Shown piece by piece: positions 6,506 through 61,569 of a stretch of 64,000 nucleotides of DNA; the first letter of the stretch is position 1; the number at the start of each line of letters is the position of its first letter. This DNA comes from Psammoneis japonica (Eukaryota): the NCBI GenBank assembly GCA_008632985.1, contig QPGO01000200.1, positions 62,001 to 126,000 on the forward strand, given 5' to 3'. The notes below the pieces were generated by a model. It saw only the letters and a list, made by a program, of their open reading frames with translations, did no database searches and was not told where the DNA came from. The position numbers and the translations under genes are program-made.

Positions 6506-6618
6506 GGCGCGCAACACCCATTAAACACTACAGTAAGTAAATTGAGCCGCAATGCCGAAGACCGAACATCAACTGAAGGTGCCGGTCACGAATGCGCGCG
6601 CGAGTGATTCTTTAGAAC

Positions 6619-6730
6619 AGGGCCCTCTGCTACTCTCTACTCTCTCTACTAGAGAGTAGAGCCAGCTCTACCACTCTAGGTACTCTCTAGACGACTCTCT
6701 ACTCTAGAGAGAGCAGTGCTGTAGAGAGAG
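6619..6730. repeat. CTAC/CTAG-rich tract at the left border of repeat block 1
   Basis: agggccctctgctactctctactctctctactagagagtagagccagctctaccactctaggtactctctag. Confidence 0.75.
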
Positions 6731-8020
6731 AAAAATTAGAGGGGAGAAAAAGGGTGGGCCGAAGGTGCGGGGACAGACGGTCGAGAGGAGGAGTTGGCAA
6801 TGGCAGGATGGCGAAGAAGAAGAGCTTGGCATGTGGAGCGATGGTTGGAGAGAGCAAAGCCAAAGTCGAGGCTGAGGATTTGGGAGGCCCAGAGTTGAGG
6901 GGTTGCAGTGTGACAGGAGGAGCCGAAGCAGACCAGTGAAAGTTGTTTCCAGGCTGCATTGGAGTGGGCAAGGAGGTTGGATGGTGCGAGCAGCGAGTTG
7001 GTGAAAGTGGAAGGATGCTTGAGAGTTGGAAAGGGAGGGCGGGCTTGTCCAGGGTGGTTTGGGAGGAAGGGGTGGGATGGAGGAGGATGTTGTGTGGCTG
7101 GTTGAGGTGCCAAAAAAGAGGATGTGCTGGGGAAATGACACCCGACTCTCCACCAAGGTGGTCGAATGTGAAAGGAAGGAGGAGTGGTCCAGCTTGATTG
7201 ACAGCGTTGATGATGTCAGAGCCACGGGGCAGATGGTGTGGAGTGACCAAGAAGCTTGTCCCATGCGCTGCTGAGGCAAGCCTTGCTTGATGGGTTTTCA
7301 GGGACCAGGGACAGGCAACAAACCAGGTGCAGGAGGCGGGGAAGCTGGCGGCACAGTGACACCGATGGCCAAGAATTGGTGGGTGGATGGGGCATTTGGT
7401 GGTGTGGAACTGGGGTGAGTTGAGCACCGATGTCAGTGGGGCATTTGAGGGGGTGGTCAGCTAAGAGGCCGGCAGGGTCAAGGCAAACTTGTTGGTGGGA
7501 AAGGCATGGACCACAAAGAGGGCCCAGTGTTTCAACAATGGTGCAAACGGTGTCTCAAATGTGATTTGGTAGAAGGCCTTCATGCATTTTAGAGCATGCA
7601 AAGGTGTGGTCTCCGCAAGGGTCTGGGTGGGTGCAGCCGCATGGGCAGCTGCATTGGAGCAGATTTGAGGGAATTGTTGGGAGGCACAGCTTGTGCAGGA
7701 GAAGGAATGCAAACAAGTTTGATGAGAGCAGGTTGGAGGCGGGAGCTCAGGAAAGAGAGTGAAGGCACAGGCTTGCCAAAGGAGATGGCAGGGATGGAAG
7801 GGCTGGCTGCATGGAGGGATTGGCAAGGATCTGAGGGAGAGTGTTGTTCTTGTGATGACATGGGTGAAGGTGCTGTGCAAGACCGGTGGGAGTTGGGGTT
7901 CCCCAAACTGCCATCAGCTTCAAAATGGGTGGTGCAGTGGAGGTGCAGTGGGGTGGTGGTTCTGGGCACGACAAAAACGACCCAATGGACCAATGGACGT
8001 GGGTGAAGAAGATGCACCGG
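6730..8020 (-). mobile_element. Decayed 3' end of a non-LTR retrotransposon with a restriction-like endonuclease (zinc knuckle + RLE)
   Basis: Manual minus-strand translation around 7440-7630 gives PDPCGDHTFACSKMH..NHI*DT..LDPAGLLADHP, resembling the D-P-x-G-D-H-x-F-x-C / H-N-x-I-R-D / R-P-A-D pattern. LLPFTFDHLGG follows downstream. Confidence 0.6.
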
Positions 8021-11000
8021 TGAGAAAATGATGAGTGTCTGAAAAACTTTGCATCAGCAGACAGAGCAACATCTGCTTGATGCAATGCACACTTTGCTTT
8101 GTAAGTTTCCTTGATTCTTGAGAAAGTGTGGAGCAGGCCAGCTGGCATTGTCTGCAGTTGTTCATGACCCAGTTGTGCACATCCTGTTGGTCGCATCTTT
8201 TTCTCTTTCCCATGACTTGCTTTCTTTTTCTTCACCCCCTGCTGCTCACAAAATTTCTGGAACCATGTTGTGGTTTGCCAGCATTGCCACAGAGTCCTGT
8301 TGCTGATTCCACACATCAACAAACCACTGGGTGGTTTGGACTTTTTTCCAATGCTGCTCTGTGGTGTTTTCTGCAGGATGAGAAAATCTCTGGCAGCACC
8401 CATCACAGAGATTTGACAGCAATGTCATTGCATGCACAAGCAGTTTCTAAAACAAAAAGTGCTGAGAATGATGGCCATTTGCATTGGTCAACAGGCTGCG
8501 CACATGGAGGCACTGCTTGGTTTCATCAGTCACAAGTTTTGTTCTGAGTGGTTTGATTTTTTGCCCGAGTGGGGACAGGGCTGCAGCACTGCACTCAGGG
8601 CTCCACTTGAGTGACTCTCTGCCTGTGTGTGTGCAGCATCTGTGTGTGCCACTGCTGCTTTGCTGGTTTGTGTCCTGTTGGAGCAATCTGGCTGGCATGG
8701 TGACAGTTGGAAAACCAGAATCCTGACATTTGGGCAGGAAGAGGCAAACTGTTTCTTGGGCTTGCTTCCCAGCTTTTTGGACCAATGGTGGGTTAAAGTG
8801 GCCAATGAAACAATGGAAAAAAAGCCTCCCAATGCATTGTCAAGGGATGTTGCACACTCAACATTGACTCTGGGAGAAGGACTCTCAACTGGCTTCAAGG
8901 CATCTCCCCTTGTGTTGGTCTTGACAAGGCCAGAGAGCAGGGTTCTGCTCTGGGGAAAGAGTGGCAGGTGGGCAGAGGCAAACAGAGCAAGAGCTGCACC
9001 AACTTCCAATGACAACAGGCATTTTTGCTGCTCAGCAAAAGCCATGACAAGCAAGTGTTGTGCTTGCCATTGCGCAAATGGTCAGACTGGAACAAAGTCC
9101 CAGTCCTTTGGTGTGCTTTTCTCAAAAGATGGGACCCAGATCCTTCTCAATTGCAGTGAATGGCACACTGGTGCAATGCATTGCTGGAGCCCTGCTCCCA
9201 GTTGCACCTCCTTTGGTGGGGCCTGCCTGACATTGAGGCCACAGCTGCAATCTGTCTGGTCTGTTTTCTCATGAAGCTGTGGATTTCTCCTTTTGAGCTT
9301 GACCAGGTGTCTCAAGAAGGGGGTCTTGTCACACTGATCATTGCTTCAGAAAGAGCTGCCTTTGCTCTTGACTTTTGTTGCTTGACCAAGGCTGAGACCC
9401 CCCAATGACACTTGGTCACCATCCCTGTGCGTGTTGGTGCTGCCTCTGACTCTGCTTGGACATCTTCTCTCACCTCCTGTCTGTTTTGGGCTTTCCCTTT
9501 CTTTGTCTGGTGGGCCTGGTGCTTCAACACACTTCCTGTGCTCTGTTGCAAGTTGTTGGTTGTAAAATTGTCTGCTGTGGCATTCAAAATCTGGCACTGG
9601 AGCTGTGCAAAAAAGCAAACATTGCAGCCACTTTGCACAAAACATCTCACAAACATGATCTTGGTGAGAAGACAGCACGCCACTGTGCAAAGATCTCTCT
9701 TCACAATGTGTTGTTCTGTCACAAAAAAATGCTGCCTGTCAAGCTGTTTCGTGCACTTTGTGCTTGACACATGATTGCATTTCTCCAACCCCACAGGATT
9801 GAAGAACTTTCCCCTCCTCCTGAAACACAGGACATTGTCCACCTGTCCTGCACCTCACACCCCGAGACTCTGAACAAAGTTCCTGGTGTCCACAGCAGCT
9901 GGGGATCACCATCACAAAATCCTGCCAGCTTCAACTGCATCAAGCCCTGGCATTCAGCCTCAGTTTGGGTGAGTTGCTGGCTGGCATGCCTCTTCCCAGG
10001 CTCTTGGTCATGCTGTCACAGACCTTGCACATTGGTGTGCCATGCATGGGGTGCCAACCCACTCTGTTTGATGATGCCCCTAGTTTGTCTGCTCTGGGAG
10101 TGAGTGTTGCATGACTTGCCCCATCTGCTTGAGATCATTTGCACCTGGGTCATGTGCTCTCATTTGCAAAAATGAGATTGTTGTCTGCAGGTCCTCTGGT
10201 CACAAGTTTCTGCTTTGACAGGAAGAGCAAATTTTCAATGTTTGATGTGAGCACACTGCTTTTTCCCAAGCTTGGGGATCCAAGTGTGTTGGTGCCAGAG
10301 CAGAATTCTCTTTCTGTCCATGCTTGCTGGTGGTTCCTCTGCATGAGTTCATCTGTGTGCTGGAGCATGCTCAACTTGACCTTTCCTTCTTCCCACAGCC
10401 AACAGTCATGCCCAGATGTTTGAACATCATGGTTTCTGCAAGTGACTGTGAGAGCTCTGAAAATTTGCCATGCTCCTTCAGGGTTTTGACCATGTCCCTT
10501 GTTGTGACACTTGACTCCACTGTGTGGGGCACTCTTTCTGAGTCATTGGGCACACCACAGAATGAAGCACATTTCTTTCTGTTGACAACTTTGTTCACCA
10601 CACACACAGATTGCAAGGGGCAGCTTCAGTCAAATGCCTTCTTCCAGGCCAGGATGACTCCTTGCAGCATTCCATGTGGGGCCTTGCTCAGCTGCTCAGG
10701 AGTTCACAAAGGCCAACCACTTCACTCTCAAGTTTGATGAACATCATGTCTCCTTTTTGCTTGGCTTGCATCATGATGTCTCTTCCTTCCTTTGCATTGT
10801 CAACAATGCATGACAACAGAGCTGACTTGGTGTGGGCTTCAGGGGCCAAAAGGCATCCTCCCTTGTCATGCACCCCACATTTTTGGGTCTTCCATCAAAA
10901 CACACAGCACATGATCCTTGGATGCGCCCCTTGTCCATGTGTTTGAGTTGCTCCACTCTCTTGGTTGCTGCACATCTTTGTTTTTTTTTTCCCAAACAAC

Positions 11001-14000
11001 CTCAGCCCCTTCTTCATTGGGCACTGTGAGTTGTTCATGCTTTGGCACATTGGCACAGTCATGTGAAGGTGGTTGCAGTGCTGAAGCTTTCTTTTGTGTG
11101 GGCCACAGGTGCTGCTGCATTTTTCACATTCACTTTTTGTTCATTTTGTCCTTGGCAGCTCTGTCATTTGCAGCCACCAATGTCATCAGGTGAGCCAGCC
11201 ACATGTCTGCACCCAAGCTCATTTGGTGTCATCCCTCATTGAGTGAGATTTTTGTCTTGAGGATCCTGTTTTGTCCACTCCTTCATCTCTGTTGGGCTGC
11301 ACTTTGCTGTTGTCCAGTGCTGCTTTCATCACATGCTGCACTCCTGTGTTTTTGAAGTTGTTGCTGGCATTGTGCTCATCTTGATTGTTGGGCAGGCCAT
11401 CAATTGGATCCTTGGGCTGGTCCTTCATTTGGTGCTGATCTTGTTTGCTGCAGCCATTGTTGCTTTGCTCATCTTCCACTCATGTGGCAGCAGAGTCATT
11501 GTGCACAGCTGCTGTTGGAAGCATTGTTGTTTTGGGAAAAGCTTTGCTTGCATCCAAAAGATGGTCTGCTCTGACATTGTGTCTGCAGCTCTGCCAGTGT
11601 GCAGCTGTTGTCAGTTGTGGGGCCCACTGGGGTGTCATCATGGCCAACATTGTTTTCATTGTCATTGCTGGGATCTGGCAGGACACACGTGCTGCTGTCA
11701 CACCATTGCCATCCCATCTGCCTTGTTTGCATCAACCACTGTTGCCACACCAGCCCTTTAACCTGGCAGTGCAGATGGAGCAGCCAGCAGCCCATGTGCT
11801 GAAATTTTAGCCAGCTTGGAGCCTGGCAGCCAGACTGAGAGGAAGTGTCATCTGCCCTGCTGCATGGTGTTTCCAGTGGCTTTCTGCCAAAGACACAGCA
11901 TTGATTGCTGCCCATCATCACACCCACCTTGGCTTGCAACACAGCACATGAGTTGAAGAGCAGTGCACTGTGCTGGCTCTGGACATGGTGCTTGACACTT
12001 CATGCAAACACTGCTTCATCTCAGCAACATGCTCTTCAAGTGAAGCAGCACTGAGATTGATGCCCACCTCTGCAAGACCTGCTGACTGACAATGGCTCAA
12101 GTTGTCCTTCTGCATGCTGGGTTTTGTGCATTTGGAAACTGCACTTCACATTGTGCCCCACCTTGACTTCTTGTTTGGCAGAGGCAAGCAACATGGTCAC
12201 CATTGTGCTGGTGCCTCACAAGGTCAACACTGCCTTGTTTGACATTCCTCAGGTTGGTTGTGCCACAAAAGGCACACCACTTGTTTTCACACAACAGTGC
12301 AGCAAATGATGTGATGCCCTTGTGCTGGGCTGCCACCAAGGCCTGTGCACATTCTGTGCAGCTTTCAGCACATGGTGATTGCTTGCTCACATCCATCACA
12401 CATCTTTGCTCTTGAAAGCATGCACACCTGGCTTCCAAAGATGTTCTCTGCTGCTCAGACATCTTGGACAGTGACTGGGCAGTTTGAGAAATTTCCTTGT
12501 CACATCTTGTGATTTGGGCAAACCGCCTCACAGCCAGTGCCTTCCAATGGTCATGACCTTCTAGAGCTTGTGTGCAAATGCAGTCATCCCAGAGCAGTCA
12601 CAAGTGGTGTGCCCAGATGTTTTCTCTGCTGCAGCTGCATTAAAAACAAAGCCACCCTGTGCTTCATGAGCTGTGGTCTTTGCAGCATCACAACAGAACA
12701 GCCCGTTCTTGGACTTGATGGCAAAGTTTCTTGTGTTGCTGTCTTCCTTTTGTGCACAGAAAGTGAAGCTGCCTTGGCTGCCACAGGTTGCCCCCAGCAC
12801 TTGGACTTGGCACTGGTAGATGGTTGGGTGTTTGCAGCACCCTGAGGATGCCACAATTTTCCACAACCAGGAGGGAAGGTGGTGCCATGAGGTTGGTCTT
12901 CTTGTCTTGCAAGCTGTGTTGCAGAGGTTGAACATTGTGTGTCTTGTTGAGCATCTTCTTGCTTGAGGACATGATGTGCGTGGGCTGGCTGCCCAACAAA
13001 ACCCAGTTTTGGTTTGCAACCACCCCAATTTCTTGCATTTGCACACCACACACTCTCCTCAGGGACATGAGAAAGGCTCGCTCTCCTGCATGTGCAACCC
13101 GCAGAGTCTTTGTGATGCACTCACAAACACCCTTGCATGGGATTTTGTGTGATGTTGGGCACCCACAGAATTCCATGAGTGAGCTCTGCAGCAAATTGTT
13201 GGGTGATGAATGCACCACTGGTGACTGCCAGCAGAAAAAAGAGGCAGTTTTACAAATGCACAAACTCGTGCATGCTCGCAGCATTGTTTCTAGCTTGCCC
13301 AACATTTTCAGACAATGAAGAAAATGCCCCACCCAATTTTTGCTCACAAAAGCACCAATGCTTGCCTGGTGAATGAAAAGCCTTTTGCTTTGCAAAACAG
13401 AGCTCTCTGCATGCACATGTGAGTCATCATGGCCCAACTGGCCATCTCGTGGCTGGCATGCCTTGCATGAACAAGTGGTTTGTGCAAGATCTGCACAGTG
13501 CCAAACATGTCCCTGCTGTCACACAGGGACTTAAACTCAGCTCAGCTCACTGTGTTACACCCACATGCATTGTGCACAGAATGGTCACACAATCAACAAG
13601 TTTTCACACCTGAGGCAGCACTTGGACCCCATTCCTGTGTGGGGCACAGCCGCACCACTCCCACAAGTGCAAGATGCTCTGGAGACATGAGGAGTGCAGT
13701 TGCCAGCACTTGGTCAAATTGCATTTGGGTTGGCATTAATTGAATGCAGGAAAGCCCAACGGAGCCATGCAGGACCTGCATTGACCTTGCCTCTGGCACA
13801 GAATTTACATGACAGCCAGTTGGCTCATGACTGGTCCGCGGGGAACTCCCACGCAACCAATTTCAAACTGTGCAAACCCACAAGGAGTTGCACTTTCAAA
13901 ACAGTGCACTTGTGCATGATCAGCTGCCCCTGTGGGCCAGCCTGCAGATGCTTGAGCAGCCTTGCTGGACAACCCAGAGGGGATTGCCCACTGCAAAAGA

Positions 14001-14200
14001 GCCAGGGGCAAAAGGGCCGCTGTTGGGACTGGCAAAAAAAGACAGCACTGTGCCACTGCACACAGACTCTCAGAGGAGCACAAACAAAATGGGAAAAGAT
14101 GGTGTCGCTTTCTGAGGTGAGACAGGCCTGAGTGACAAACAACAAAGCATTTCCACGGCAAATTTGACTTTTCCCAGTTGTGCCGTCAGGCAGTTTTCGC
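8020..14200. mobile_element. Heavily decayed repeat/transposon-derived block (family not assignable by eye), depleted of CpG and TpA
   Basis: No coherent ORF. Dozens of short overlapping Cys/His-rich, almost Tyr-free ORFs in all frames. Composition matches the recognisable TE remnants elsewhere in the window. Confidence 0.6.
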
Positions 14201-14499
14201 GTCAGTTCCCACATGAGATTGTTGTTTGTCTCTCGGACACTCGACCAACACTGCCAGCTAGACTACTTGATGTTTTCTTCACCCGCCATCATGGCTGCGG
14301 AAGCAGCAGATAACGATTTAGTTAAGCGCACAACAAGCCAAACACTTCAATGTAACATAAAAGAGATAAATCGCCATCTGCAGTCGGCATCAGGTCGAGG
14401 TCACACTGACCCAGGACACACAGCGTCAAATCCATTTGAAATGCGTGTGTCTGACTCTTTCGATGTGTGCTCCCCACAGTGCTACTATCATATGCGTGC

Positions 14500-14662
14500 T
14501 TGACTCTCCTCTCTACTATACTCTAGACTAGCTCTACTCTAGAGATAAAGTAGCTCTAGCTAGCTAGAGAGAGAGAGAGTAGAGCTCTCTACTAACTCTA
14601 CCAGTAGAGTAGAGAGAGACAGCGAGTACTACCCTACATAGTAGTAGCTACAGTAGTAGATT
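14500..14662. repeat. CTAG/AGAG/GTAG-rich tract at the right border of repeat block 1
   Basis: ctctactatactctagactagctctactctagagataaagtagctctagctagctagagagagagagagtagagctctctact. Confidence 0.8.
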
Positions 14663-14864
14663 GTACATGCGGTGGAGATAGCTGTGACGAGAGCACCGGC
14701 CTGAAGTCTTATCCAATGGGTGTAGATTCGATTGCTAAGTAGTGAGCATCTCCCGGTCTACAAAGTACTAAAACAACAATACACTACTTGTGTGCGTGAA
14801 TTCCACTAGATGGTTGCCACCTTCTTCGATTCTTGTCTGCGTTCTCCAAAGCCGATGCGTACGG

Positions 14865-17800
14865 CTACTCGCGGCTCCCTTCTTCCTCTGAACTCTCACC
14901 ACTTACTTCTTCAATTGTGCTCTGGGTTTTGCCTTCAAAAGTCGAGTGTGATAACGCGCTACCCAGCGAAGTTGATCTGTGCCGGCCGCTGCTCGTACGC
15001 CTTTTCTTCGCAGACGGCGAAAAATTGTCGTCGTCCGACTCGTTCGCGCCCTCTTCGTACAGCGGTGACAGAGACCTGTGAGCCGACATCTTTGACCGAA
15101 TACTGCTGATGCTACTGCCACGTGACAACCTCCCACGAAGCCGAGATGATCTATCCGCGGAACCAGGAGTCATACTTACACTCCTATGGGATTCGTCGCT
15201 ATCTTCAGCGGAAGAGACACTTCGAGGGGAAGATCCCCTCTTCCGTGTCTCCTTAAGCCCGACAGATGCCCGAAAAGCTGTAAGGGCTGCCAGATCGTCC
15301 TCATGCACTTCTGGGAAATCTTCGTGAGCACGAAGCTCCGTCTCGTAATCGATTACAGTATTGCGAACAACTGTGAGTTGATCTTCGTTCTTCTTTATCC
15401 AATTGACATACCTGAACAGTAGGAACGAGATTGTGATGTCAGAGATGCTTAAGGCAGTTGCAATGGAACCCGAAACATAATGCGTCCCTACCTGCTCAAG
15501 ATGTTCAAAAAGGTTAGGCGGACGCCTAACATCAACTCATCGTCATCTTCATCCGCGACGCCTCCTGTTTTTGTTGTTGAAAATGCAAACCGAATACCCT
15601 CTTTGACAAATCCCAAAAGTGCCGGCGACAATTTCTCGTCACGTAGCTTGCCAACTCCCAGTGACATCGAAAGCCTAGCTCCTTGTTGCTCCAAAGTATG
15701 GAACTTAGTATGAGGAAACGAAGGTTGTAAGAAAACCTCTCCACAGCAAGTTGACAAAGAAAATCACACTACAACTTACCAACTTCTCGTGTTTTCGCTC
15801 CTCTTCCTCGAACGCGGCCATTTCTTCGTCAGTTGGGCAGTCATTTTCTAACTCATCTGGTCGCATTTCCGACCAGTCCTCGTACGACTGTCGCAAACAA
15901 GCCATGTGAGCTTCTAGGAGTCGGACGGGTTCGACCTTCTTCATCAAACGAGACAGTGCACCGATCAGGTCTGAAGCGGCCGTCCCGCTACCAGTTACAT
16001 GCGCAAGTGCAACACCAGCTTCCCTACGGTTGCCTTGTCGCCAATTCGTACCAAGCCCGCGGCCCATTGTAAGGAGCAAAGGCTGTACAAGATCCATATC
16101 CTCCTTATCTTCGCGCTCGCTTTCACGAAGCTGGGGAAGCGACAGAAACTTGTGAGATGAGTGGATAAAGTAAATTTTTGCACGATGACAGTTAGTACAT
16201 CTCTCTTACATGTTCCTCTTTCGATCGAAAGAACCGAATAAAGCCGCCAATGAGTCGCCCGTCTTGAGTCAACGCACAAGCCCTGAGTAACGGACTCACG
16301 GCATCGGCCCATTCCCTTGGGAAAAGCATACGCAAATCGGATGCCACCACTCCGGCGTGAATCTGCACCGCTTCTGCAAACTCACGGTGTTCGGTTGAGT
16401 ACGGCGACCCTTCCTGTTCCTCCTCCGTTTCTTGGTCTGGAAGGTACTGCTCAAAGCAGAGTTCTGCGATGGAAACCAGTTGGTCCCTCAGGCGGACAAC
16501 GATGTGATCAGTCATGTCTTCGTCACTTTCATCAATGTCCATATCGTTTGTTCCGTTCGGTACTAGGAGGTTCTCTTCTTCCTGAGCTTCGCGTAGCTTC
16601 CATGCCGTGGTAGCTAGAAGAAAAGACATGGCTTCATTAGTAGATTTTGCAACTGCGCCGTGCACATCGGCGTCGCAGTTCTTCCACACATCCGGAATAA
16701 CAACCTGGGTCTCTTCGTCATCATTCTCTCCTTCCATGAATTCCAACTTACGCTCCTCTAAACGCCTGGCTATACCTTCGACCACTGAGCCGCAGATAGC
16801 TTCGATTCCATTGCTCGGCGACTGAGTCGAGCTTTCCAGAAGATTGGCAAGGTCACACCTTTTCGAGAGCACACGAAGTCTCTTCAAGCAAAGATAGATT
16901 GCATGCTCGACGTCCTTCTTGTCGTGAGTGCCATGAGCGTCGTTGGTCACAGATGTTTCAGCTGAACACTGACTTGACGGTGAGGACGCTTTGCTACGTC
17001 GTCGCTTGGCCGGACTCTTCTTATTCTCTCCGGTGGCGTCGTTGTCCTTCTTGAGCAATTCCACGAGCCTATCTCCAAGCGTCGAGACCATTTGCTTCAA
17101 CTGCAAACGACCGTCACGAGCTCTCGAGTGATCCCCACGAGACAGGAACATCAAAGACAACGCGGTATTTTGAAGGACTGAATCATCTGCCGACTCGAGG
17201 AAAATGCCCGAGAGGCTCTTTATCAAAGCCACGAAGTCTTTCTTGCGCTGCGGCAGACTGACGACAGACGGCACTGACACACAAAGCGTAAAAAGTGGTG
17301 ATGAGCAACGTGGCAACGACGCCAACAGCATACAAATGACGAAGCAATAAGGAATCACGTACGCAAATATCTGGGGAGCTTTGTGAGACTGCCTAGAACA
17401 GCAGAGTCTCCCTTGAACTTTGTGATCAATTCTGGAAGCGACTTAAGCAGTGCGACAGAGAGCGTTTCGTGTGCGTTCCCTTCGCCAGTTGAGGTTTTGC
17501 TACGTTTGCTGGGAGGCTTACTTGCCTCTACTAGCAGCCCTGAATTCGACGTTGCGCCTACAGCATCAGTGTCAACGTCGCCAAGCAAGAAGTCCGGGTC
17601 TGCAACTTCTGCAACCTCCGCTTCCGCAGCACAGGCAAGCATCTGCACAAGAATCCGCTGTCGCACGTGCACATCGTCGACGTTATCCCCATCCTCGGTT
17701 GATGAAGCACCCGAATCTTCGCTAATGGATTTGAGCATTGTTGGCCAATTGGTTGCGAGAGATCTGTATTTTGGCATATCTCGAAGAGAGTAAATTATAA

Positions 17801-20364: not shown

Positions 20365-20510
20365 CCTCTCTCTACCGGTATCTACTACTCTCTCTAGAGT
20401 AGCTAGTAGTAGTAGCTTCTCTAGCTAGAGGGCCCTACTCTAGTAGAGTAGAGAGGTACCGGTAGGAATACTCTTCTACTAGTAGTAGAGAGTACCGCTG
20501 CTAGAGCACA
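20365..20510. repeat. CTAG/GTAG-rich intergenic tract with TACCGGTA x2 and GAGGGCCCTA
   Basis: tctaccggtatctactactctctctagagtagctagtagtagtagcttctctagctagagggccctactctagtagagtagagaggtaccggtag. Confidence 0.8.
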
Positions 20511-20614
20511 TGCGCATGGAGAAGCCTAATTCATCCCAAAAGCCAACGCAGTACAGTAAGGTTATCTATGTATAATTTGTGCTACTATTTTCAATTTCAC
20601 GGAGACCTAACCTG

Positions 20615-21951
20615 TCACAGAGCTGCCACAGTCGGTAGAGGCACGTCATTGTAGCTAATTTCAATCTCACGGTTTTCTGCGTTGGATTTGGCAGCTGCAT
20701 CAGCAACCTTCTGAACTCGAATACAATCATCTGCACTAATTTTCCAAGGGGAACCCAGTAGCAATGTATCCGCGAAAGCGTCCAGTTCGGAAGCGAAGGC
20801 CTGGTTGAATCTCTGAGGGAACGAATGTTTGAGTCTCGATCTGTGAATCCCAGAGCGATCAGAGAGGACAGCACTGTGTTCGTGTTCATTACCAACTGAC
20901 ACATGACCCAAGTCACCGAATATTTCACAGCGTTGGTCGTAGCCATAGGTCGCAGAACGACTCATGAAGAGTGTCACGACAGCTCCTGATCAGTACATGC
21001 CGCAGACTGAAATGTAAGCGAATTAAATTGCACGGAAACCCCATTTACAGTACGACGCTCTCACCTTTTTGAAACTTCATCACCATTGTTGCGTTGTCGT
21101 GTACGCCACAGGCGGCCAACTCATCAGTCGAGGACGTACCAGTGGCAAAGACGCTCACCACCTCGTCCTGTAGCGCCCAGCGAATGAAATCCACATCATG
21201 CGCACTCAGGTCCATAAAGATGTTCCCTCCAGTTAACAGGAATTCTTTTGGTGGCACAGGGTGGTCGGCAAAAAACAAATTTGCAGTAATTGGCCTTCCG
21301 AGTCCACCCGTGTGAACTGCATTTGCAGCCGCCGCGTAAGAGTGGTCAAAGCGTCTCTGGAATCCGCAGCATAAGGTTATTCCGCCGTCTAAGGCGGCTG
21401 CAAAGGCACGTCAATCTTTTCAGCGGTCTCCTCTACAGGTTTTTCTGTAAAGACGGACAAGCCGTTGGAAGCAGCTTCCTCAATCACAGATTCGTGAGTG
21501 AATGTAGGGGTTGACAGTACTATCGCGTCCAAGCTTGATTCGCTAAACGGTGCGTTTGAGCCAATTCCAGCCATTGCATCAGACAGACTCGTGAACGGAG
21601 TCGTCTACACGAGCATTAGATAGAGGGAGTGGGGCGTGAGACGACATCAAATGATGCTTTGTTCGCGAAAAAAGCTCTTTTCTTCTTGCCTAGCCTGAGC
21701 TTTCTTACCCCAAACTTCGTTGCCGCAGCCGTCGCTCCCTCGTAGTCAACATCCACAATTCCGCATAGCTCAAACCTCGGATTAGCGTACACAAGCGAAG
21801 CTCGAATCTGACCCATCCTACCACTTCCCACAACGACAACCTTTGCCCGTTTTCCAACTGTGGAAGTGGTCGACGAAAGCCACCTCTGCAACGCATTGCT
21901 TCGATCTCTCCCGCAAAGTCGTCTTGAGATAGAAACAGAATATGGCACCAT
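20615..21951 (-). CDS. Gfo/Idh/MocA oxidoreductase (myo-inositol 2-dehydrogenase-like); 2 introns and an apparent 1-nt frameshift near 21410
   Basis: VVVGSGRMGQIRA, STPTFTH, VFTEKPV, CGFQRRFD, GGNIFMDLSAHDVD, YGYDQRCEIFG. Confidence 0.85.
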
Positions 21952-28197: not shown

Positions 28198-29718
28198 TTA
28201 AGGACTGCCAGATGAAGTTGTTTCGGTTTCATCTTCGTGACGCTTCAAGAGTGGATCATCCCAGTCTTCTTTGCCCATGAAGCAGAGGGCGCTGTGGTAC
28301 ATCGTTCGACAACATACAACTACAAGTGCCAGTGTAGCAATTCCCATAAAAATGGCAGCCATTACCTCTGCTGCCGGAGTGCCCACATCAGAAGCATACT
28401 GTACACAAGCGTTTCCAAGTGCCGACACTGGAAAGACGTATGCCCAATAGTTCCCCAATACCGATGGTCGTGATGCAATCATTGGGCCCAGCTTGCAGAG
28501 CAACAAAAACACAACGAGACACCAACCGAGAACCATTTCTGCAGCAACGCCAAATTCCTCTGGATCTCCATCAAACCCATTTAGTGCAATCACCGCAACA
28601 GACGGTGGTGCGATAAGCAGAGTCAGGGATGGCGAGCCCTTGCAGCTACCACATCTGTGGATTCTAGTGAAGATGTTGCTCACCACCAATATGTAAAACA
28701 TTGTTCCAGCTCCAAAGCAAAACGATGGTAGCCCGAGGCCCCATACTTCCTCTATTCGGGCAACTTGTCCCAAAACAGAAAGAAGGAACCATCCAACTGT
28801 AGACAACAAAAGCTGAGGCCTTGCAATAGCAATGTTTTGGGTTGAAGAGAACATCCATTTTTCATACACAAACAGTGTAATTATCAGCTGTGCAGAAAAT
28901 GCAATTGTCCACAAGACGCGCCGACACGTTTCGCTGACTCTGATGGAATTGGGTATGCCGATGGAGAGCATCGTCAACGCCAAATGCGGAGCGTTCATGA
29001 AGTGAATACGGGTTGGATCGGCGTACTCGCGACGACAGAGGTCGGGTGTTGAACACAGTCTGTACACGTAGGCAAGACCTGTGATTGCTCCGACCACCAC
29101 AGCGGTAATCCAAAGTATTTCATTCGCAAGGCCAGCATTGACTCCAACGAAGTCAGCTTCAGAAGCTGTGTTCCACATGATGGAGTTTCCGGCAAGCCCC
29201 ATGGCGATACCAAAAGCGGTATTCGGTATGCGCACAATAACCGGCGGCATCCTCGCCACATCCTCGCCACGCGATGAATCCTCATTATCTTCGGAGCCAT
29301 AAATAACCGTGAGTCGAGATTGACTTGTTTCGCCGGTCGTCGCGGGTTCATTTTGTGTTCCTGTGCCTCTGTAGTCCTGTTCGAGACGGCGAGGCACCGA
29401 TCTAGATGACGCCACAACCGTGATGGTGGGAGAAATCACAGGATTTCCTGACAGAGATAATGTTGAAGAGTTGGTAGGTGAAATGATGTTTCTGTCGGTC
29501 GCCGAGGAACACCTATCTTGGCCGCCTTCTACTTCTACAGAGAGTTTTCTGGAGCGGAGTTGTTGGCGTCGGGCCTCGTCAGGTTCTCCAGTCGACTGTT
29601 TAGTATTATGAATATTATTGTGCATGGCTTCATTCATTACTGTTATGAAACGTCGGGTAAGTCTTTTTAAATACTTAGCTGTAAGCAGACAAGTTGTCAG
29701 TGGTTCTGTTGTGTTCAT
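28198..29718 (-). CDS. SLAC1/TehA (TDT family) anion channel
   Basis: About 10 hydrophobic segments; FGIAMGLAG, REYADPTRIHF, LLIAPPSVA, YWAYVFP. Start codon uncertain. Confidence 0.85.
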   Translation of the reverse strand: MNTTEPLTTCLLTAKYLKRLTRRFITVMNEAMHNNIHNTKQSTGEPDEARRQQLRSRKLSVEVEGGQDRCSSATDRNIISPTNSSTLSLSGNPVISPTITVVASSRSVPRRLEQDYRGTGTQNEPATTGETSQSRLTVIYGSEDNEDSSRGEDVARMPPVIVRIPNTAFGIAMGLAGNSIMWNTASEADFVGVNAGLANEILWITAVVVGAITGLAYVYRLCSTPDLCRREYADPTRIHFMNAPHLALTMLSIGIPNSIRVSETCRRVLWTIAFSAQLIITLFVYEKWMFSSTQNIAIARPQLLLSTVGWFLLSVLGQVARIEEVWGLGLPSFCFGAGTMFYILVVSNIFTRIHRCGSCKGSPSLTLLIAPPSVAVIALNGFDGDPEEFGVAAEMVLGWCLVVFLLLCKLGPMIASRPSVLGNYWAYVFPVSALGNACVQYASDVGTPAAEVMAAIFMGIATLALVVVCCRTMYHSALCFMGKEDWDDPLLKRHEDETETTSSGSP

Positions 29719-30179
29719 TGCGTTTGCTGCTCATGCGGTTTTCGCGTTTTTTCGCATGGATTTTGGATTTTGTGTGAGAAGATTCTTCCAAGATCCCGCT
29801 CGTCGCGCGCGCGCCGGGCTAATCCGAAATTCCAAAAAGGGGAGGGTGAAAACGCATGCACCCCTGTGGTAGGGGAGCTGTGTGTGTGTGCGTGGTTGTG
29901 CGCGCACGGCTTCGCCGTGCGTTGAGTTTTAATGTTAATATCCACGCGAATGTGTATATTCCATAAGTAAAAATTCCTATTCCACAGCTCCCCTAAAACT
30001 CTAACCACCAAAAACCGAGGGGTCGGAAGCGCACTTTCGGGAGCTCTTTTTCTCCGCACAAAAAACACGCGTTTCGTCGACTCGACCATGATGATGCCTC
30101 GTGGTTCTGCCCCATCGCCTTCCCAGGACGCCGATCCTACTGACACCGTTGCCAACAACACTGACACAACAGGTAATGT

Positions 30180-30745
30180 CATTATTCCGGTTCTTGTGGG
30201 TGTGACACGTACAAAATAAGATGCTACAAACTCACACTGTTGTTGGCACGCTCCACCGCCTCCCACAGATGCCATCACGAATTCCAACGCCGCACCTGCG
30301 TTTCGGCCCCCTAGCATGCCCGATGCTGTTACTCCTGCCCTTGCTGCCGCAGGTGCTGTTGACACTGTTATTGTGTTTTGCCAATGACGTCCACAATGAA
30401 ATGCCAATGACTCACACTTCTTTCATTCTCGCCCCACCGCCTCCCACAGACACTGTCACGAATTCCAACGCCGCACCTGTGTTTCGCCCCCCTGGCATGC
30501 CCGACACTGTTGCTCCTGCCCTCACTGCCGCAGGTGCTGTTGATGCTGTCATTGTCTTTTGCCAATGACGTCCACAACGAAATGCTTGTAACTCACACTT
30601 CTTTCATTCTCGCCCCACCGCCTCCCACAGATGCCATCACGAATTCCAACGCCGCACCTGCGTTTCAGCCCCCTGGCATGCACCACACTGTCAATCCCAC
30701 CCTCAATGCTGCAGTTACTGTTGACACTGTTGTTGTTTTTGCTTC
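30180..30745. repeat. Three tandem copies of a ~190-bp unit
   Basis: Repeated cgcctcccacaga..tcacgaattccaacgccgcacctg..gcatgc..gcaggtgctgttga..ttttgccaatgacgtccacaa at about 30257, 30438 and 30619. Confidence 0.9.
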
Positions 30746-30959
30746 AGGATTTTTCCTGCTGCCATTGGCATTTGTGTGCAAATGCACAAACAGGTGTGAG
30801 GACATTCACACAAAAATGTAATGAACAAGACACAAACTGCCACGTGACCATGACATCACCACATTCTCCCCTGCCACAGGGGTGAAACACATGCAGTGCA
30901 TCAAATGGAATTATGTGCACATTCATGTGTTTACATGTGTTGCTTTTTCGCGCCCGCCG

Positions 30960-31095
30960 AAGACGCAAGAGGAGAAGAAGAGACCATGAGACATGCACGC
31001 GATTCGACCAAAGCAAAAGACCCGCCAAAGCAAGATGCAAGAGAAGAAGAAGAGATTGTGAGACATGCACGCGATTCGACCAAAGCAAAAGACTG
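30960..31095. repeat. Direct duplication of a ~60-70 bp unit
   Basis: gcaagag(g/a)agaagaagag....tgagacatgcacgcgattcgaccaaagcaaaagac occurs twice. Confidence 0.9.
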
Positions 31096-31099
31096 ATGA

Positions 31100-32660
31100 C
31101 ACCACGACGACAGACCGAATGGCAATTGACGAAAACACAGTGTGAAATCAGCCATTTTCACCGGGCAAGAGTGGCGACAGCTGTGCATGACAAAATCACA
31201 ATCAGCGCGAGGAGGTCTGGTGGACAGTGGACAGAAGCAATGGAAATGTTGGCCCTGGCGCCACTCACTTTCCTTCAGCGGCGGCAAGTCTCTGGAAAGA
31301 CACCACCGCAACCTGCACATTTTTGGATCTTGCCACACTGCTCCTTTTTCAGTTTTTTTCTTTTTTCCTGAGCCCGGGCACTTTGCACCCCAGGCTTTTT
31401 GAAAAACACTCTCCTCTGTCATCAAGCCCAGCTGGCGTGGTGGTGAGACACCATCAAAGCTCAGCTCCCAAAGAGAGCTTCTGAGCACCAAAGCATTTGG
31501 CTGCAAGTTCTCTGGCACCACACCACCCTTGCACCCATTTGAAGAAATTCCAGCACTGTCTCCTTGCTCCAACAAAAGCAGCCAAACATGTGGCTGGCAG
31601 CTTGTGCCAACAAGAAGAGACAGGCAGCACCACAGAGAGTGCACACACGCAAGAAGCAAATGCATCTGAAAAGTTTTTGTGGTGCCCGTCATGTCAACCA
31701 ACAGTTTGAGACACTCTCTTGCTTGGGTGAGCTTGGCAGAATTCAGAGCTTTTGTTGCTCTGTGAGCCCCGCCAGAGAACAAAGCTCCTCTCTGCTCATG
31801 GAAAAGTTTTTGCTGCTTTGAACACCCACCTTGTGTTTGTCATGGCACAAGTGACAGCCCTCGAGTTCATTCATTTCTGCAACAGCTGTGGTCTCTCTCA
31901 AACAAACAACAGATCGTGTGCAGCATGTCCAGCAAAAGAAGAGACAACATTGCTGTTGCAAGCAATGACAAGATCCAGGTGGCTCTGTTTCTCTTGCTTG
32001 CTGCAGCCATTTGTTCTGGCACCACTCCAGCCTTGCAGCAGAGGAAATTTTTGTCTCGCATGTCGCGCTCTTGCTTTGGCAGCAGAAGCGGTGCACCTGA
32101 CCAGTGCTTTCTTGGAAACCCCAGGAGCTGGTGCAGCAAAGGGGGCACAAGTGGATTCTCTCATTGTTGCTCAGCTTTCAAAGGAGCTTCCTCTCCAGTG
32201 TGACGTGCTGCTGCATGATGACACGCTGTTGCATGATGGTGCCCCGGCTCAGGGGGGGGTTGAGCAAGCTGTTGCCCCCCCATGGCAGCTCCAAGCTTGC
32301 CAGCAAACATCCAAGTCTTGCCCACTTTGGCACCCTTTTCAACTTGTTTGCTGCTTTTGAGGTGCTGTGCCCCTGACTTGGCTGAGCATCTTGAGCATTG
32401 TCTTGCTGTGCTGCGCTGCCGGCCGCTGCAGCAAGTGTCTCTCGCGAGGAAAGCTCCGCGCGCAGATCTTGGATTTGCAATTTGTTGTGTGTTGCGTTGC
32501 GTCGCCTGTTGTGAAGGCTTTCTACCGATATTTTCGCTTTTGTCTTTCGTCGCGTCTGTCGCAAATTCTTCTGCTGTTTAACACAAAAACGACGATCGAA
32601 ATCGCTGGACCTCTGGTGAACTGGTAAGACGAAGGCGACGAAAACGACGGATACGGGACG
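31100..32660 (-). pseudogene. Decayed gene or transposon ORF with a relatively intact CpG-rich 5' end and a TpA/CpG-depleted body
   Basis: ORF 32178..32663 reads like protein at its start (QKNLRQTRRKTKAK..LQIQDLRAELSSRE) and then breaks into Cys/His-rich fragments. Confidence 0.4.
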
Positions 32661-42997: not shown

Positions 42998-43420
42998 GCA
43001 GGGTTGGGCCTTTTGTTGTTTGAGGGACTCTGCGTGAAGTTCACGCTAGAGTCGGTGTTAGTAGCGGAGCCCAGCTCTATAGTGTACTTTTAGAATCATC
43101 ACTGCATGAAAGTCTTCACTCAATTCATGTTCCGTACTGTAGGGCTTTTATGAGCTCGGAGCTCCCTCTAGCCTCTAGAGTAGAGTGACCTTACCAGACG
43201 GCACGGTACATACCCCTGTATCGTGAGTGAGAGCTATGGTTCAGTACGCAACTGCCGTAGAATTCCACGAAGGGAACCTTCGACGTGCACGCACTCACGC
43301 ACTTTCAACTTGTGGCCTAGCGAGAACTTCACAGTCCAGTTGTTGGGTGTTCGTACGTATTGTGTCTCTTCGAAAGTATCCTTGGGGCATTGGAAGTGTG
43401 CAGTATACGGCAAGAGAGAA

Positions 43421-47800: not shown

Positions 47801-48279
47801 TTGTCCTTGTTGTGGAGTCAAGTTCATGCAGTGACTTTCATTTTGCTGGCATCCATGGCTTGCAGGCAATGCCATGGAAATTGCACCAAAATTCAGATTG
47901 TTGGTCCTGCAAATGTGAGACCATGCAAAAGAGCCAAGTGTTTGCAAGTTTGAGAGTGAGAACAAGAGAGAAACAGAGACATTGCACAAAATGCAAAAGT
48001 GGCTCACCTTCAATTCATTCTCAGCCCTCCCCTTCCACACTTCATTTTGCAACTCCCACTGTTGTCATTTTAACACAAACAAACAAGTGCAAAGAAAATG
48101 CACAGCACTTGAAATGAGAAGCATGCCACTTCAAATGCTCTTTTCAAATGCTCCATTTTTCCATTGTGGCAAAGTGCGGAGAGTCTTTCAACTCACCTCC
48201 TGGTTCTTGTTGAGTTTTTTTCAACTCGCCTCATGACACCCATGCTGAAGCCACACAAGCCTCTGGCACAGGCAAACTG

Positions 48280-48810
48280 AGAATTTGCCCCCATTTGAAA
48301 GACATGACCTGCCCACAAATCTGCCACCATCCTGAACTTTCATGAACAGTCTAATTCCACCACCACCCTAAAAATTCAGGACTGCAGTGGCCAGCAGCAA
48401 CCACCATGGCTTAAGTTCACAACTGCAATTCTGTCATGTCACGCAACACTGTGATGGTGTCCAACCAGCCTGAATTTGCCACCATCCTAAAAATTTGCCA
48501 CTGGCTTAAATTCATGACTTGCACAAATCCGCCACCATTCTAAAAATTCACAACTGACCCTGATTCACAACTGGCATAAATTCGCCACCATCCTGCACAA
48601 TTTACGACTGGCCTGAATTCACAACTGGTCCAACTCCGCCACCTGTCATGTGGCAACAGGACCCTAAATTCATGACTGGCCCAAATCCACCGCCATCCTA
48701 AAAAGTTCATGACTGGCCTGAATTCACAACTGTCCCAACTTCACCACCATCATAAAAAGCTCATGACTGGCCTGAACTCACAACTGCCCAAAACTCTGCC
48801 ACCTGTCACT
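48280..48810. repeat. Degenerate tandem array of ~40-55 bp units
   Basis: Recurring ccgccaccatcctaaaaattca(c/t)gactggcctgaattcacaactggcccaaa. Confidence 0.85.
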
Positions 48811-59190: not shown

Positions 59191-59289
59191 CTGAATCTGC
59201 ACTGTCAAGATCCTGGGTCATGGATTCATGCTGGCTGGATCTGCCACCTGCTGTTGGTGGCTTTGCAGCTTCCAGACATGTGTGCTCTT

Positions 59290-61500: not shown

Positions 61501-61569
61501 CAGCTGGTGTGAGAAATTGTCTCTTGCCAAAAAATGAGCACCTTGACCTTTGCTGTGTTTGACAGAACC

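Follow-up and report, generated by a model that had tools for sequence, protein, structure and literature searches.

A TpA-specific mutational process probably acts in place, alongside CpG decay, in repeat islands of a Psammoneis japonica chromosome

The window analysed here is a 64,000-nucleotide stretch of a nuclear chromosome of the diatom Psammoneis japonica (GCA_008632985.1, contig QPGO01000200.1, positions 62,001 to 126,000 of the forward strand); all coordinates count from its first letter. Next to genes, it contains four blocks, 24,026 bp in sum, that are poor in both TA and CG:

6738–14258, unstranded: block 1, a TA/CG-erased repeat island with 19 TA (296 expected) and 61 CG (449 expected)
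30933–32522, unstranded: block 2, a short island with 0 TA (63 expected) and 49 CG kept (95 expected)
45662–53989, unstranded: block 3, a TA/CG-erased repeat island with 31 TA (328 expected) and 86 CG (497 expected)
57414–64000, unstranded: block 4, a TA/CG-erased repeat island that continues past the window end, with 11 TA (260 expected) and 35 CG (393 expected)
6635–6721, unstranded: a TA-rich low-complexity cluster of CTCTAG/GTAGAG type, that adjoins block 1 on its left side

A partner of this cluster lies to the right of block 1 (14511–14609), and similar TA-rich clusters are found at the left edge of block 3 (45591–45658) and, without a block, at 20370–20635.

Together, the four blocks retain 61 TA where ~947 were expected, i.e. 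~94% are gone, and 231 CG where ~1434 were expected (CG observed/expected, o/e, 0.16, against 1.01 outside the blocks), while the o/e of CA/TG rises to 1.84. The original prediction had described 10083–10920 as free of TA and CG but rich in TG and CA, and 10083–11758 as free of TA. Counting bore this out: the former has 0 TA (55 expected) and 0 CG (48 expected), with an o/e of 2.10 for CA and 1.71 for TG, and the latter has 0 TA (102 expected) and 2 CG, the exact TA-free gap being 10082–11759 (1678 bp). At the TA frequency of the flanks, a run of 1678 bp without TA has a log10 probability of –29. When the TA-free gaps of the window are ranked by length, the first 25 (361–1678 bp) all fall inside the four blocks; outside them the longest is 249 bp. 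Over 6730–14200 the o/e was 0.04 for TA and 0.12 for CG, and the other three blocks named in that prediction, at ~31–32.4, 45.5–54 and 57.4–64 kb, likewise follow the pattern (TA o/e 0.00, 0.06 and 0.03; CG o/e 0.35, 0.18 and 0.09). Adjacent genes, said to be spared, indeed are: outside the blocks, CG o/e is ~1.0, and that of TA is 0.51 in long ORFs, 0.52 at codon positions 2–3, 0.60 at codon positions 3–1 and 0.80 in non-ORF DNA (10,977 bp), and CA/TG is at 1.14–1.33 in genes. On these values the contrast with adjacent genes is real, and the blocks also fall far below non-genic DNA.

The summed frequency of YR steps is the same in blocks (0.2419) and flanks (0.2409), therefore the fall of CG from 0.0597 in flanks to 0.0096 in blocks and of TA from 0.0394 to 0.0025, with the rise of CA from 0.0709 to 0.1149, reflects the conversion of TA and CG into CA/TG by transitions. 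This reading takes the ancestral composition of the blocks to have been flank-like, since no source copy without the mutations was found. TG and CA are near balance, with TG/(TG+CA) at 0.48–0.55 per block. Relative to non-ORF DNA, AA/TT is not depleted (1.08x), and AT and TC/GA stand at 0.80x and 0.81x. Plain GC-biased conversion, i.e. a context-independent change of A to G, was raised as a counter-explanation from the start and is excluded by a GC content of 0.496 in blocks, compared with 0.486 in all flanks and 0.469 in non-ORF DNA, as well as by the undepleted AA/TT and the AT of just 0.80x. Across 333 kb of diatom-like metagenome loci, just one mild 1-kb case of the TA/CG pattern was seen.

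The blocks are old, non-coding, degenerate and partly multi-copy repeat islands. None of 192 block ORFs of at least 80 aa matched Pfam at E up to 0.01 (blocks 1, 3 and 4 each had none), and one 163-aa block ORF had no relatives among 1.84 billion representatives. With regard to LTR retrotransposons, which carry reverse transcriptase, integrase, protease or gag domains and are flanked by long direct repeats, there was no Pfam domain match, and block 4 has direct repeats of ~1.5 kb. The repeats are probably transposon-derived. Repeat status was judged from paralogs within the window, listed below, and from word depth in one public DNA run, X1.

57652–59201, + strand: paralog A of a ~1.5-kb repeat, an LTR-like direct repeat in block 4
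61560–63060, + strand: paralog B of the same block 4 repeat
63059–64000, + strand: paralog C of the same block 4 repeat, truncated by the window end
10308–10609, + strand: a block 1 segment homologous to 60175–60470 in block 4, aligned in a purine/pyrimidine alphabet
50165–51064: internal repeat families of block 3

Word depth in X1 rises to 1808 at 6635–7585 and to 390 at 12975–13291 and is ~60 elsewhere; block 1 is therefore partly multi-copy, and most of it is single-copy at the 31-mer level in this run.

Comparison of the paralogs suggests that conversion took place where the copies now lie. A and B share 79% nucleotide identity and 87.5–91% identity in the purine/pyrimidine alphabet; for other paralog pairs identity rises from 83% to 95% and from 74% to 89.5%. 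CA/TG makes up 29 of the 92 adjacent double differences between A and B, followed by a class of 5, with the other double-transition classes at 1–4. Another 15 CA/TG doubles separate B from C, and each pair among three units at 50.2–51.1 kb has 11–13. The match of 10308–10609 to 60175–60470 scored 198 bits in the purine/pyrimidine alphabet (null maximum 60), its 289 columns comprising 155 identities, 90 transitions and 44 transversions, with 21 CA/TG doubles. Because TG/CA doubles dominate between paralogs, the copies appear to have resolved one ancestral step differently after their separation, and these alignments indicate that TA/CG conversion is in situ and independent in each copy. The transversions (44 of these 289 columns and 88 of 1457 aligned columns in a second comparison) show the repeat families to be old, so that a slow process is possible for the block interiors. 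A and C, however, are 96% identical and both already lack TA and CG, hence at least the A/C duplication postdates erasure; in this case the elements may have been TA-poor already when copied.

Two tandem arrays give the change a polarity:

30207–30749, + strand: three tandem 181-nt units at the left edge of block 2, which is soft, with TAs in the outer unit and TG/CA at those steps in the inner units
48478–48792, + strand: a tandem array of 54-nt period within block 3, in which one step is variously TA, TG or CA among units

In units 1–3 of the 181-nt array, the patterns by site are TA/TG/CA, TA/CA/TG, TA/TG/TG and TG/TG/TA, and six more sites are mixed TG/CA. Between units 1 and 2, 14 of the 17 differing bases fall within YR steps, and outside YR steps only 3 of 129 columns differ. 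Conversion had reached 26 of 30 TA-type copy-sites, compared with 3 of 24 CG copy-sites. The variable step of the 54-nt array reads CTAA, TTAA or ATAA in some units and CTGA or CCAA in others, a CACG step is found as CACA or CATG, and 5 of 6 units retain the TA in CCTAAAAA-type contexts. Sites with all three states, TA, TG and CA, are present in both arrays; an ancestral TA is the simplest explanation for them, and it makes the change directional.

Loss of TA and loss of CG behave differently at the borders. On the left of block 1 the last TA is at 6737 and the next at 7462; on the right the corresponding positions are 13806 and 14259. TA density drops stepwise, from one per 5–20 bp to none over a few bases, whereas CG o/e fades across ~1 kb and goes from 0.34 to 0.03 across the first 1.5 kb of block 1. 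As block 2 demonstrates, TA can vanish entirely while about half of the CG persists. The two losses are therefore separate, and that of TA is the faster.

TA loss also depends on context. Among the surviving TAs, just 61 in number, xTAT is absent (0 of 61, compared with 410 of 1579 in the flanks), and 15 of 61 lie in TTAA (55 of 1579 in the flanks). Counting both strands, TAA/TTA accounts for 65 of 122 surviving views and 618 of 3158 in the flanks. In short, TTAA, TTA and TAA are spared and TAT/ATA is erased. CGs flanked by A/T are the most depleted (TCGA 10 vs 215 in the flanks; CCGC 24 vs 111).

The base calls are supported by contigs of X1, which has a word depth of ~60 and was compared with the window down to 85% likeness. 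Of the contigs that match block 1 and its surroundings, one (6586–6897) differs in 0 letters and spans the left border, a second (8537–10989) differs in 5, and a third (10992–15500) differs in 12 and spans the right border. X1 is probably the source sample of the assembly, hence this read support is non-independent. Among 20 block 1 variants listed for single X1 contigs, with 71 further entries lying outside this count, 13 are CG or TA versus CA/TG, or TG/CA doubles (n = 2); the rest are 4 other transitions and 3 transversions. By these listed variants, TA/CG conversion is recent or ongoing.

Could the elements have lacked TA and CG before they inserted, with no mutation at the chromosomal site? 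Active transposons might have been selected to avoid dinucleotides that host defence reads, or an RNA or cDNA intermediate might have been edited, and such an origin would suit the likeness of A and C, the lack of any copy with a normal TA content within the window, and the finding that none of 15 well-supported multi-copy variants listed (6839–7816, contigs at least 85% alike) gives TA for a window TG/CA. We nevertheless consider it unlikely. Paralogs differ mostly by TG/CA doubles, so resolution came after separation, three-state sites occur inside tandem arrays at a single locus, the outermost 181-nt unit retains TAs missing from the inner ones, and the blocks have no remaining coding capacity for selection to act upon; the near balance of TG and CA also speaks against the editing of a single RNA or cDNA strand. 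Somewhat less probable again is a neutral equilibrium, in which TA decays throughout the genome, selection keeps it in genes and short intergenic DNA, and junk reaches the TA-free state. The moderately low TA and moderately high CA/TG of genes are in its favor, as is a compact genome with little neutral unique DNA to compare, but the TA o/e of non-ORF DNA and of codon boundaries is 13–20 times the block value, TA drops abruptly at borders, the blocks are adjoined by TA-rich low-complexity DNA, and TA retention varies between tandem units only 181 nt apart.

The first mechanism listed in the original prediction, error-prone repair patches made by a pol-eta-like polymerase round T:G mismatches from deaminated 5mC, was not supported, and we regard it as highly improbable. 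It would have explained why TA loss and CG loss share the blocks, and pol eta is biased toward A to G changes at WA motifs. However, TA is fully gone where most CGs remain (block 2, the 181-nt units and the block edges), and since CGs mostly survive there, few deamination events can have taken place. AA, the other WA motif, is undepleted, and TA borders are sharper than CG borders. A technical origin, by which base-calling, polishing, assembly error or a misread modified base turned TA/CG into TG/CA, merits equally little credence. The DNA runs in which the stretch is present all trace to a single sample from a single study, perhaps the source of the assembly; yet the independently built X1 contigs match 7 kb of block 1 across both borders into normal sequence, paralogs carry a stable, copy-specific TG or CA, and symmetric miscalls at a modified palindromic step would be expected to leave some TA.

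Collectively, we consider it likely that an in-situ, domain-restricted, TpA-specific mutational process has acted in the blocks. A second, block-confined conversion of TA to TG/CA beside CG decay was the part of the original prediction that held: the three-state sites make it directional, the TG/CA doubles place it in situ, and the AA/TT and AT values make it TA-specific. In the model that we propose, a mutation regime limited to each island would act by transitions on the self-complementary YR steps, CG and TA, and drive them to CA/TG, through two overlapping processes. Conversion of CG to TG/CA would be the expected decay of CpG in silenced, presumably methylated repeats; decay of methylated CpG by deamination is established chemistry. 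The distinct A:T to G:C change at TpA would be specific to that step, far outpace CG decay, halt at a sharp domain border and be sensitive to neighboring bases. Its agent would be an enzyme directed to chromatin that is presumably silent: either a DNA adenine deaminase that targets the A of TpA and yields inosine, which is read as G, or an oxidase of TET/JBP type that targets the T of TpA and yields 5hmU or 5fU, which mispairs with G. That this lineage, or diatoms, possess a chromatin-directed TpA mutator of one or the other kind that rewrites silenced repeats is a tentative proposal, to which we give slightly less than even weight; the adenine deaminase alone, or the thymine oxidase alone, is doubtful. 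If the proposal is true, the mutator works at a rate orders of magnitude over background and over methyl-CpG decay, it constitutes a RIP-like genome defence with the chemistry reversed (A:T to G:C), and dead mobile elements lose two of three stop codons together with TA-based signals.

A literature search found no described mutation process that matches the TA loss, and the blocks share some traits with several known systems. As in the 5mC-driven CpG decay of vertebrates and others, CG gives TG/CA in the repeat blocks alone, with a matching gain of CA/TG; such decay accounts, however, for just ~56% of what was converted (0.050 of 0.087 per dinucleotide) and does not remove TA, which the blocks lose more completely than CG. 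The pattern of pol eta in phase 2 of somatic hypermutation, WA to WG, is also absent, given AA/TT at 1.08x and TA lost where few CGs changed. APOBEC3 (G to A) and ADAR (A to G, with a preferred 5' U) hypermutate retroelements, and clusters of transitions that disable mobile elements are common to them and the blocks. Their edits are made before integration on single-stranded cDNA or RNA, are strand-biased and do not saturate, whereas the block changes are near strand-symmetric, arose after duplication at the chromosomal site, as tandem units and paralogs that differ in situ suggest, and removed ~94% of TAs. In basidiomycetes (Microbotryum, rusts), repeats are hypermutated from TCG to TTG, a repeat-restricted, context-dependent CpG transition that the depletion of TCGA recalls; to our knowledge, that system has no TA component.

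There is also a likeness in outline to RIP of Neurospora and other ascomycetes (RID/DIM-2), where dense transitions are limited to repeated non-genic DNA, strike each copy independently, abolish coding capacity and end sharply next to genes. RIP turns CpA into TpA and leaves AT-rich targets, whereas the blocks lose TpA, accumulate CA/TG and keep a GC content of 0.496. Targets of RIP have a TpA/ApT of at least about 0.89 and a (CpA+TpG)/(ApC+GpT) of at most about 1.03; both indices are inverted in the blocks (0.049 and 2.08, compared with 0.879 and 1.10 in non-ORF flanks), and the label "reverse RIP" in the original prediction suits the pattern. Moreover, TA can give TG/CA only through A to G or T to C, which cytosine deamination, as in RIP, cannot produce. 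RIP is triggered by duplicated sequence and acts before meiosis; paralogs are present in the blocks, but block 1 is mostly single-copy at the 31-mer level. No homologue of a RID/DNMT4-type cytosine methyltransferase is encoded within the window. According to PMC9998398, diatoms have enzymes of the DNMT4 group, of unknown function and reportedly akin to fungal RID, and in the diatom Phaeodactylum DNMT5 methylates transposons. Dinoflagellates provide a mechanism lead by analogy: in the part of PMC11572971 that we consulted, their TET/JBP thymidine hydroxylases are described as making repeat-enriched 5hmU tied to transposon silencing, TA loss from repeats goes unmentioned, and older work cited there is said to show that 5hmU favors the dinucleotides TA and TC, which may be compared with the erased TA and the TC/GA of 0.81x in the blocks.

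We set the limits of the TA/CG-poor blocks from a 500-bp profile together with the positions of every TA and CG. Four blocks, summing to 24,026 bp, were delimited:

6738–14258: block 1, TA/CG-poor
30933–32522: block 2, TA/CG-poor
45662–53989: block 3, TA/CG-poor
57414–64000: block 4, TA/CG-poor, continuing beyond the window end

Direct counting bore out the original prediction that 10083–10920 lacks both dinucleotides (0 TA with 55 expected, 0 CG with 48 expected). The longer stretch 10083–11758 is likewise free of TA (102 expected) and contains 2 CG, and the reported abundance of CA and TG was recovered there at observed/expected (o/e) ratios of 1.7–2.4. Across the four blocks, 61 TA and 231 CG were present, versus ~947 and ~1434 predicted from the frequencies in the flanks, that is, in the rest of the window. 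The window's 25 longest TA-free gaps (361–1678 bp) all lie inside blocks, and the longest one outside is 249 bp; at the flank TA frequency, a TA-free run of 1678 bp has a log10 P of -29. GC content is 0.496 in the blocks versus 0.486 in the flanks. We noted a strong plus-strand G-over-C skew (+0.43) at 7001–8000, in the multi-copy left end of block 1; TG-versus-CA skew along the blocks had no consistent strand or edge pattern.

Between the blocks lie long, nearly unbroken ORFs with ordinary eukaryotic domains (pyridine-nucleotide oxidoreductase, SET, SLAC1, RCC1, rhomboid, fatty-acid hydroxylase, TFIIE alpha and cohesin SCC3/STAG). The best relatives of the oxidoreductase are diatom proteins, mostly pennate, at 65–73% identity, with none closer on record; this gene content and these relatives identify the window as diatom nuclear DNA. 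The blocks themselves are non-coding and degenerate. Their 24 kb hold 192 stop-to-stop ORFs of at least 80 aa (up to 302 aa), none of which has a Pfam match at E up to 0.01. A 163-aa ORF in the segment common to blocks 1 and 4 has no relatives among 1.84 billion representative proteins, and the whole window gave no Rfam match. Long spurious ORFs abound in the blocks because TAA and TAG codons are absent; by eye, Cys, His, Gln and Trp seem abundant in their translations and Tyr scarce. An ORF for a putative SAM-dependent methyltransferase (PF04445; 5198–5791, minus strand, E 2.2e-30) lies ~1 kb from block 1. We take this family to be of the RNA methyltransferase type, and its position is probably a coincidence.

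The blocks are at least partly repetitive, and the repeats and associated motifs are as follows:

57652–59201: paralog A, copy of a ~1.5-kb unit, block 4
61560–63060: paralog B, copy of the same unit, block 4
63059–64000: paralog C, copy of the same unit, block 4
30207–30749: three tandem 181-nt units, soft left edge of block 2
48478–48792: array with a 54-nt period, block 3
6635–6721, 14511–14609, 20370–20635, 43046–43180, 45591–45658 and, in the metagenome locus L011, 14050–14120: TA-rich low-complexity clusters of CTCTAG/CTAGAG and CTCTAC/GTAGAG

Block 3 contains several internal repeat families, and a 300-bp segment is common to blocks 1 and 4. A search over the blocks in a purine/pyrimidine alphabet returned one cross-block match clearly above a reversed-sequence null, and blastp between block ORFs returned only weak links (block 3 at 53.6–53.9 kb versus block 1 at 6.7–7.2 kb, E 1.9e-8). 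Word depth in X1, a public DNA sequencing run, rises from a base level of ~60 up to 1808 over 6635–7585 and to 390 over 12975–13291. Block 1 has a CTAG-type cluster on either side, and block 3 has one at its left edge; the cluster at 20.4 kb has no adjoining block, and the CTAG-rich stretch of L011 adjoins a mildly TA/CG-poor kilobase. Such clusters might serve as an insertion target or a boundary element, or might be the termini of elements.

We then compared step frequencies between flanks and blocks.

Dinucleotide step frequencies, counted on both strands
CG: flanks 0.0597, blocks 0.0096
TA: flanks 0.0394, blocks 0.0025
CA (= TG): flanks 0.0709, blocks 0.1149
All pyrimidine-purine (YR) steps: flanks 0.2409, blocks 0.2419

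Since the YR total is conserved, TA and CG have given way one for one to CA/TG, by transitions. Genome-wide neutral decay of TA, checked only by selection, is ruled out by control compartments that lack the pattern: o/e ratios for TA and CG are 0.80 and 1.01 in the 10,977 bp of non-ORF DNA outside the blocks and 0.51 and 1.01 in long ORFs outside the blocks, and twelve ORFs, split by codon position, give a TA o/e of 0.52 (positions 2-3) and 0.60 (positions 3-1). Plain GC-biased conversion was also rejected, as GC content is unchanged, AA/TT is normal and AT is near-normal (0.80x non-ORF DNA). Weaker, secondary shifts relative to non-ORF DNA (GC 1.38x, GG/CC 1.25x, GA/TC 0.81x, AT 0.80x) hint that A:T to G:C drift also occurs at a low level in other contexts, a reading confounded by ancestral composition. 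TA versus CA/TG is also the difference at two flank sites where X1 contigs depart from the window (6331, TTA to TCA; 14650, CTA to CTG), and in genes the o/e ratio of TA is only 0.5–0.6, that of CA/TG being 1.14–1.33. It is possible that these variants and the low genic TA are a weak genome-wide echo of the same bias.

In an alignment of paralogs A and B (1457 columns), adjacent double differences were most often TG versus CA (29 of 92), with 5 in the next class and 1–4 in the other double-transition classes. Fifteen such doubles separate B from C, 11–13 separate each pair of three units at 50.2–51.1 kb, and 21 were found in the segment common to blocks 1 and 4, where 289 columns carry 90 transitions and 44 transversions. 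Upon recoding to purines and pyrimidines, the identity of A and B rose from 79% to 87.5–91%; the 181-nt units went from 83% to 95% and the 50-kb units from 74% to 89.5%. TG in one copy and CA in another at the same step point to an ancestral CG or TA that was resolved independently in the two. Judging from these alignments, conversion took place in situ, separately in each copy.

Two tandem arrays bear on the polarity of conversion. The outermost 181-nt unit keeps its TAs, and the inner units carry TG or CA at those steps (site patterns TA/TG/CA, TA/CA/TG and TA/TG/TG); the ancestral state is taken to be TA, since no other state both lies a single step from TG and from CA and accounts for the retained TA. 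One step of the 54-nt array reads CTAA, TTAA or ATAA in some units and CTGA or CCAA in others, and a CACG step is CACA or CATG in other units. We also noted that the 181-nt units resemble an ~84-nt exon plus an ~97-nt intron (a pyrimidine tract ending in CAG; GT after GCAG), with an ATG upstream at ~30089 (region 30080–30790). The array may represent a gene, built of repeated exon-intron modules, that extends into block 2; the ORFs overlapping the units, 29718–30422 (minus strand) and 30411–30818 (plus strand), have no Pfam match.

At the left border of block 1, TA occurs every 5–20 bp up to 6737 and then not once until 7462, and step-like TA borders are also seen at 13806/14259, 30932/32523, 53990/54123 and 57413. 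By contrast, CG o/e declines gradually into block 1 (0.34, 0.26, 0.12, 0.03). Block 2 has 0 TA versus ~63 expected and 49 CG versus ~95 expected, which, given flank-like ancestry, puts the TA rate in this block at no less than ~6 times the CG rate. The step-like borders and the block 2 counts support the original prediction of a second process, apart from CG decay, in the repeat blocks. Among the 181-nt units, 3 of 24 CG copy-sites are converted, compared with 26 of 30 TA or mixed TG/CA copy-sites, and units 1 and 2 differ in 3 of 129 columns outside YR steps; in this small sample from the block 2 edge, TA conversion appears far ahead of background substitution and of CG decay. Collectively, these sequence comparisons argue that TA loss is a process separate from CG loss, and a faster one. 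They also speak against the mechanism that had been put forward first, error-prone pol-eta-like repair around deaminated 5mC: TA is gone where CG persists, and AA, the other WA motif, stands at 1.08x non-ORF DNA and is not depleted.

The case for speed is that of block 2 and its edge. The repeat families are old (transversions in 6–15% of aligned columns), so block interiors may have been erased slowly. TA and CG are already absent from both paralogs A and C, which share 96% identity, and this places their duplication after the erasure; for this pair, the element may have been TA-poor already when copied. Among the variants listed for the multi-copy part, the majority letter pair is CG where the window has CA/TG at 6935, 6955, 7361 and 7496. 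None of the multi-copy variants listed has a majority TA at a window CA/TG site, and no unmutated source copy of the blocks was found.

Surviving TAs are a non-random sample. None of the 61 lies in xTAT (410 of 1579 in flanks), 15 lie in TTAA (55 of 1579 in flanks), and TAA/TTA accounts for 65 of 122 views on both strands versus 618 of 3158 in flanks. ATAT, GTAC and ATAG/CTAT are extinct in the blocks, and TA in CCTAAAAA-type contexts is retained in five of the six units of the 54-nt array. Surviving CGs favour G/C flanks (CCGC 24 versus 111 in flanks; TCGA 10 versus 215). As for the direction of conversion, TGC is above and TGA below the flank-based prediction, a result that depends on the assumed ancestral composition; we treat these contexts as a lead.

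The stretch was found in the runs of one study only, which may be the source sample and hence is not independent. X1 contigs (~60x word depth) match 8537–10989 with 5 differing letters and 10992–15500 with 12, and span both borders of block 1 into normal sequence; a second run, X2, covers flanks only, and a third, X3, covers none of the stretch. The runs listed for the stretch include none of RNA. Among the block 1 variant rows listed for single X1 contigs (20 sites, with 71 further rows beyond these), 13 sites are CG or TA versus CA/TG, or TG/CA doubles (2); the others are 4 other transitions and 3 transversions. These putative alleles fit a process that has kept running since the split of two haplotypes or strains. 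One X1 contig joins 6661 to 14598. We rejected it as an allele lacking block 1, as its shorter side is 21 letters long and both sides lie in one CTAG-type motif; the block word depth (~60), equal to that of the flanks, also contradicts such an allele.

What the sequence shows is an A:T to G:C conversion that is specific to TpA, restricted to domains and sensitive to context; it overlaps CpG decay yet is separate from it. An enzyme directed to silent chromatin would carry out the TA conversion. It might deaminate the A of TpA to inosine, which would be read as G; this would be the adenine counterpart of methyl-CpG decay, with a 3' A disfavoured. Alternatively, a TET/JBP-type dioxygenase might oxidise the T of TpA to 5hmU or 5fU, which would mispair with G, with a 5' T disfavoured. 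5fU is mutagenic. PMC11572971 describes dinoflagellate TET/JBP homologues that make 5hmU, which is repeat-enriched and linked to transposon silencing, and cites older work in which T was replaced preferentially in the dinucleotides TA and TC; this gives the oxidative route a precedent in another SAR lineage. Speculatively, a single 5-methylpyrimidine oxidase might attack T in TpA as well as 5mC in CpG. According to PMC9998398, diatom DNMT4 is a relative of fungal RID without known function; cytosine deamination, however, is unable to remove TA.

Domain-restricted, near-saturated removal of TpA by A:T to G:C conversion would be a new mutational chemistry on nuclear DNA, implying an enzyme or base modification so far undescribed; if a TpA-specific enzyme is real, its chemistry would be categorically new, and for base editing a natural activity on DNA that turns A into G or T into C specifically at TpA would be of interest. 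The pattern would also give a sequence-only marker of silent chromatin in diatoms, which are major primary producers with poorly understood genome defences. On the practical side, TA-free DNA stops only by TGA and so yields false long ORFs, which automatic annotation may call as genes that pollute catalogues. Transitions also mask repeat homology in nucleotide searches, and here the purine/pyrimidine alphabet recovered it.

Of 50 metagenome loci (332,814 bp) that surround relatives of the oxidoreductase, only L011, a microbial-mat metagenome contig encoding a 65%-identical oxidoreductase, has a mild version of the pattern, at 14209–15252 (~15 TA and ~16 CG per kb versus ~50 each in neighbouring DNA; CA/TG o/e 1.59). 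This stretch may represent the same process in another diatom, in a weaker or younger form. Repeats are poorly assembled in metagenomes, and the scan therefore says little on other diatoms. No description of TA erasure in repeats emerged from the full texts of the open-access literature, and a 2025 preprint on diatom transposable elements makes no use of the terms dinucleotide, deamination, hypermutation, RIP or CpG.

In its effect, the process resembles repeat-induced point mutation (RIP): it is repeat-restricted and copy-independent, with dense transitions that destroy coding capacity. Unlike RIP, the blocks have a TpA/ApT ratio of 0.049, a (CpA+TpG)/(ApC+GpT) ratio of 2.08 and no AT enrichment, and thus depart from RIP in every compositional index. 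If the blocks are methylated, the CG half would be ordinary methyl-CpG decay. For the TA half we know of no matching system; to our knowledge, all described repeat-directed point-mutation systems (RIP, methyl-CpG decay, APOBEC) rest on cytosine deamination. We file TA/CG erasure as a variant of repeat-directed point mutation, newly described here.
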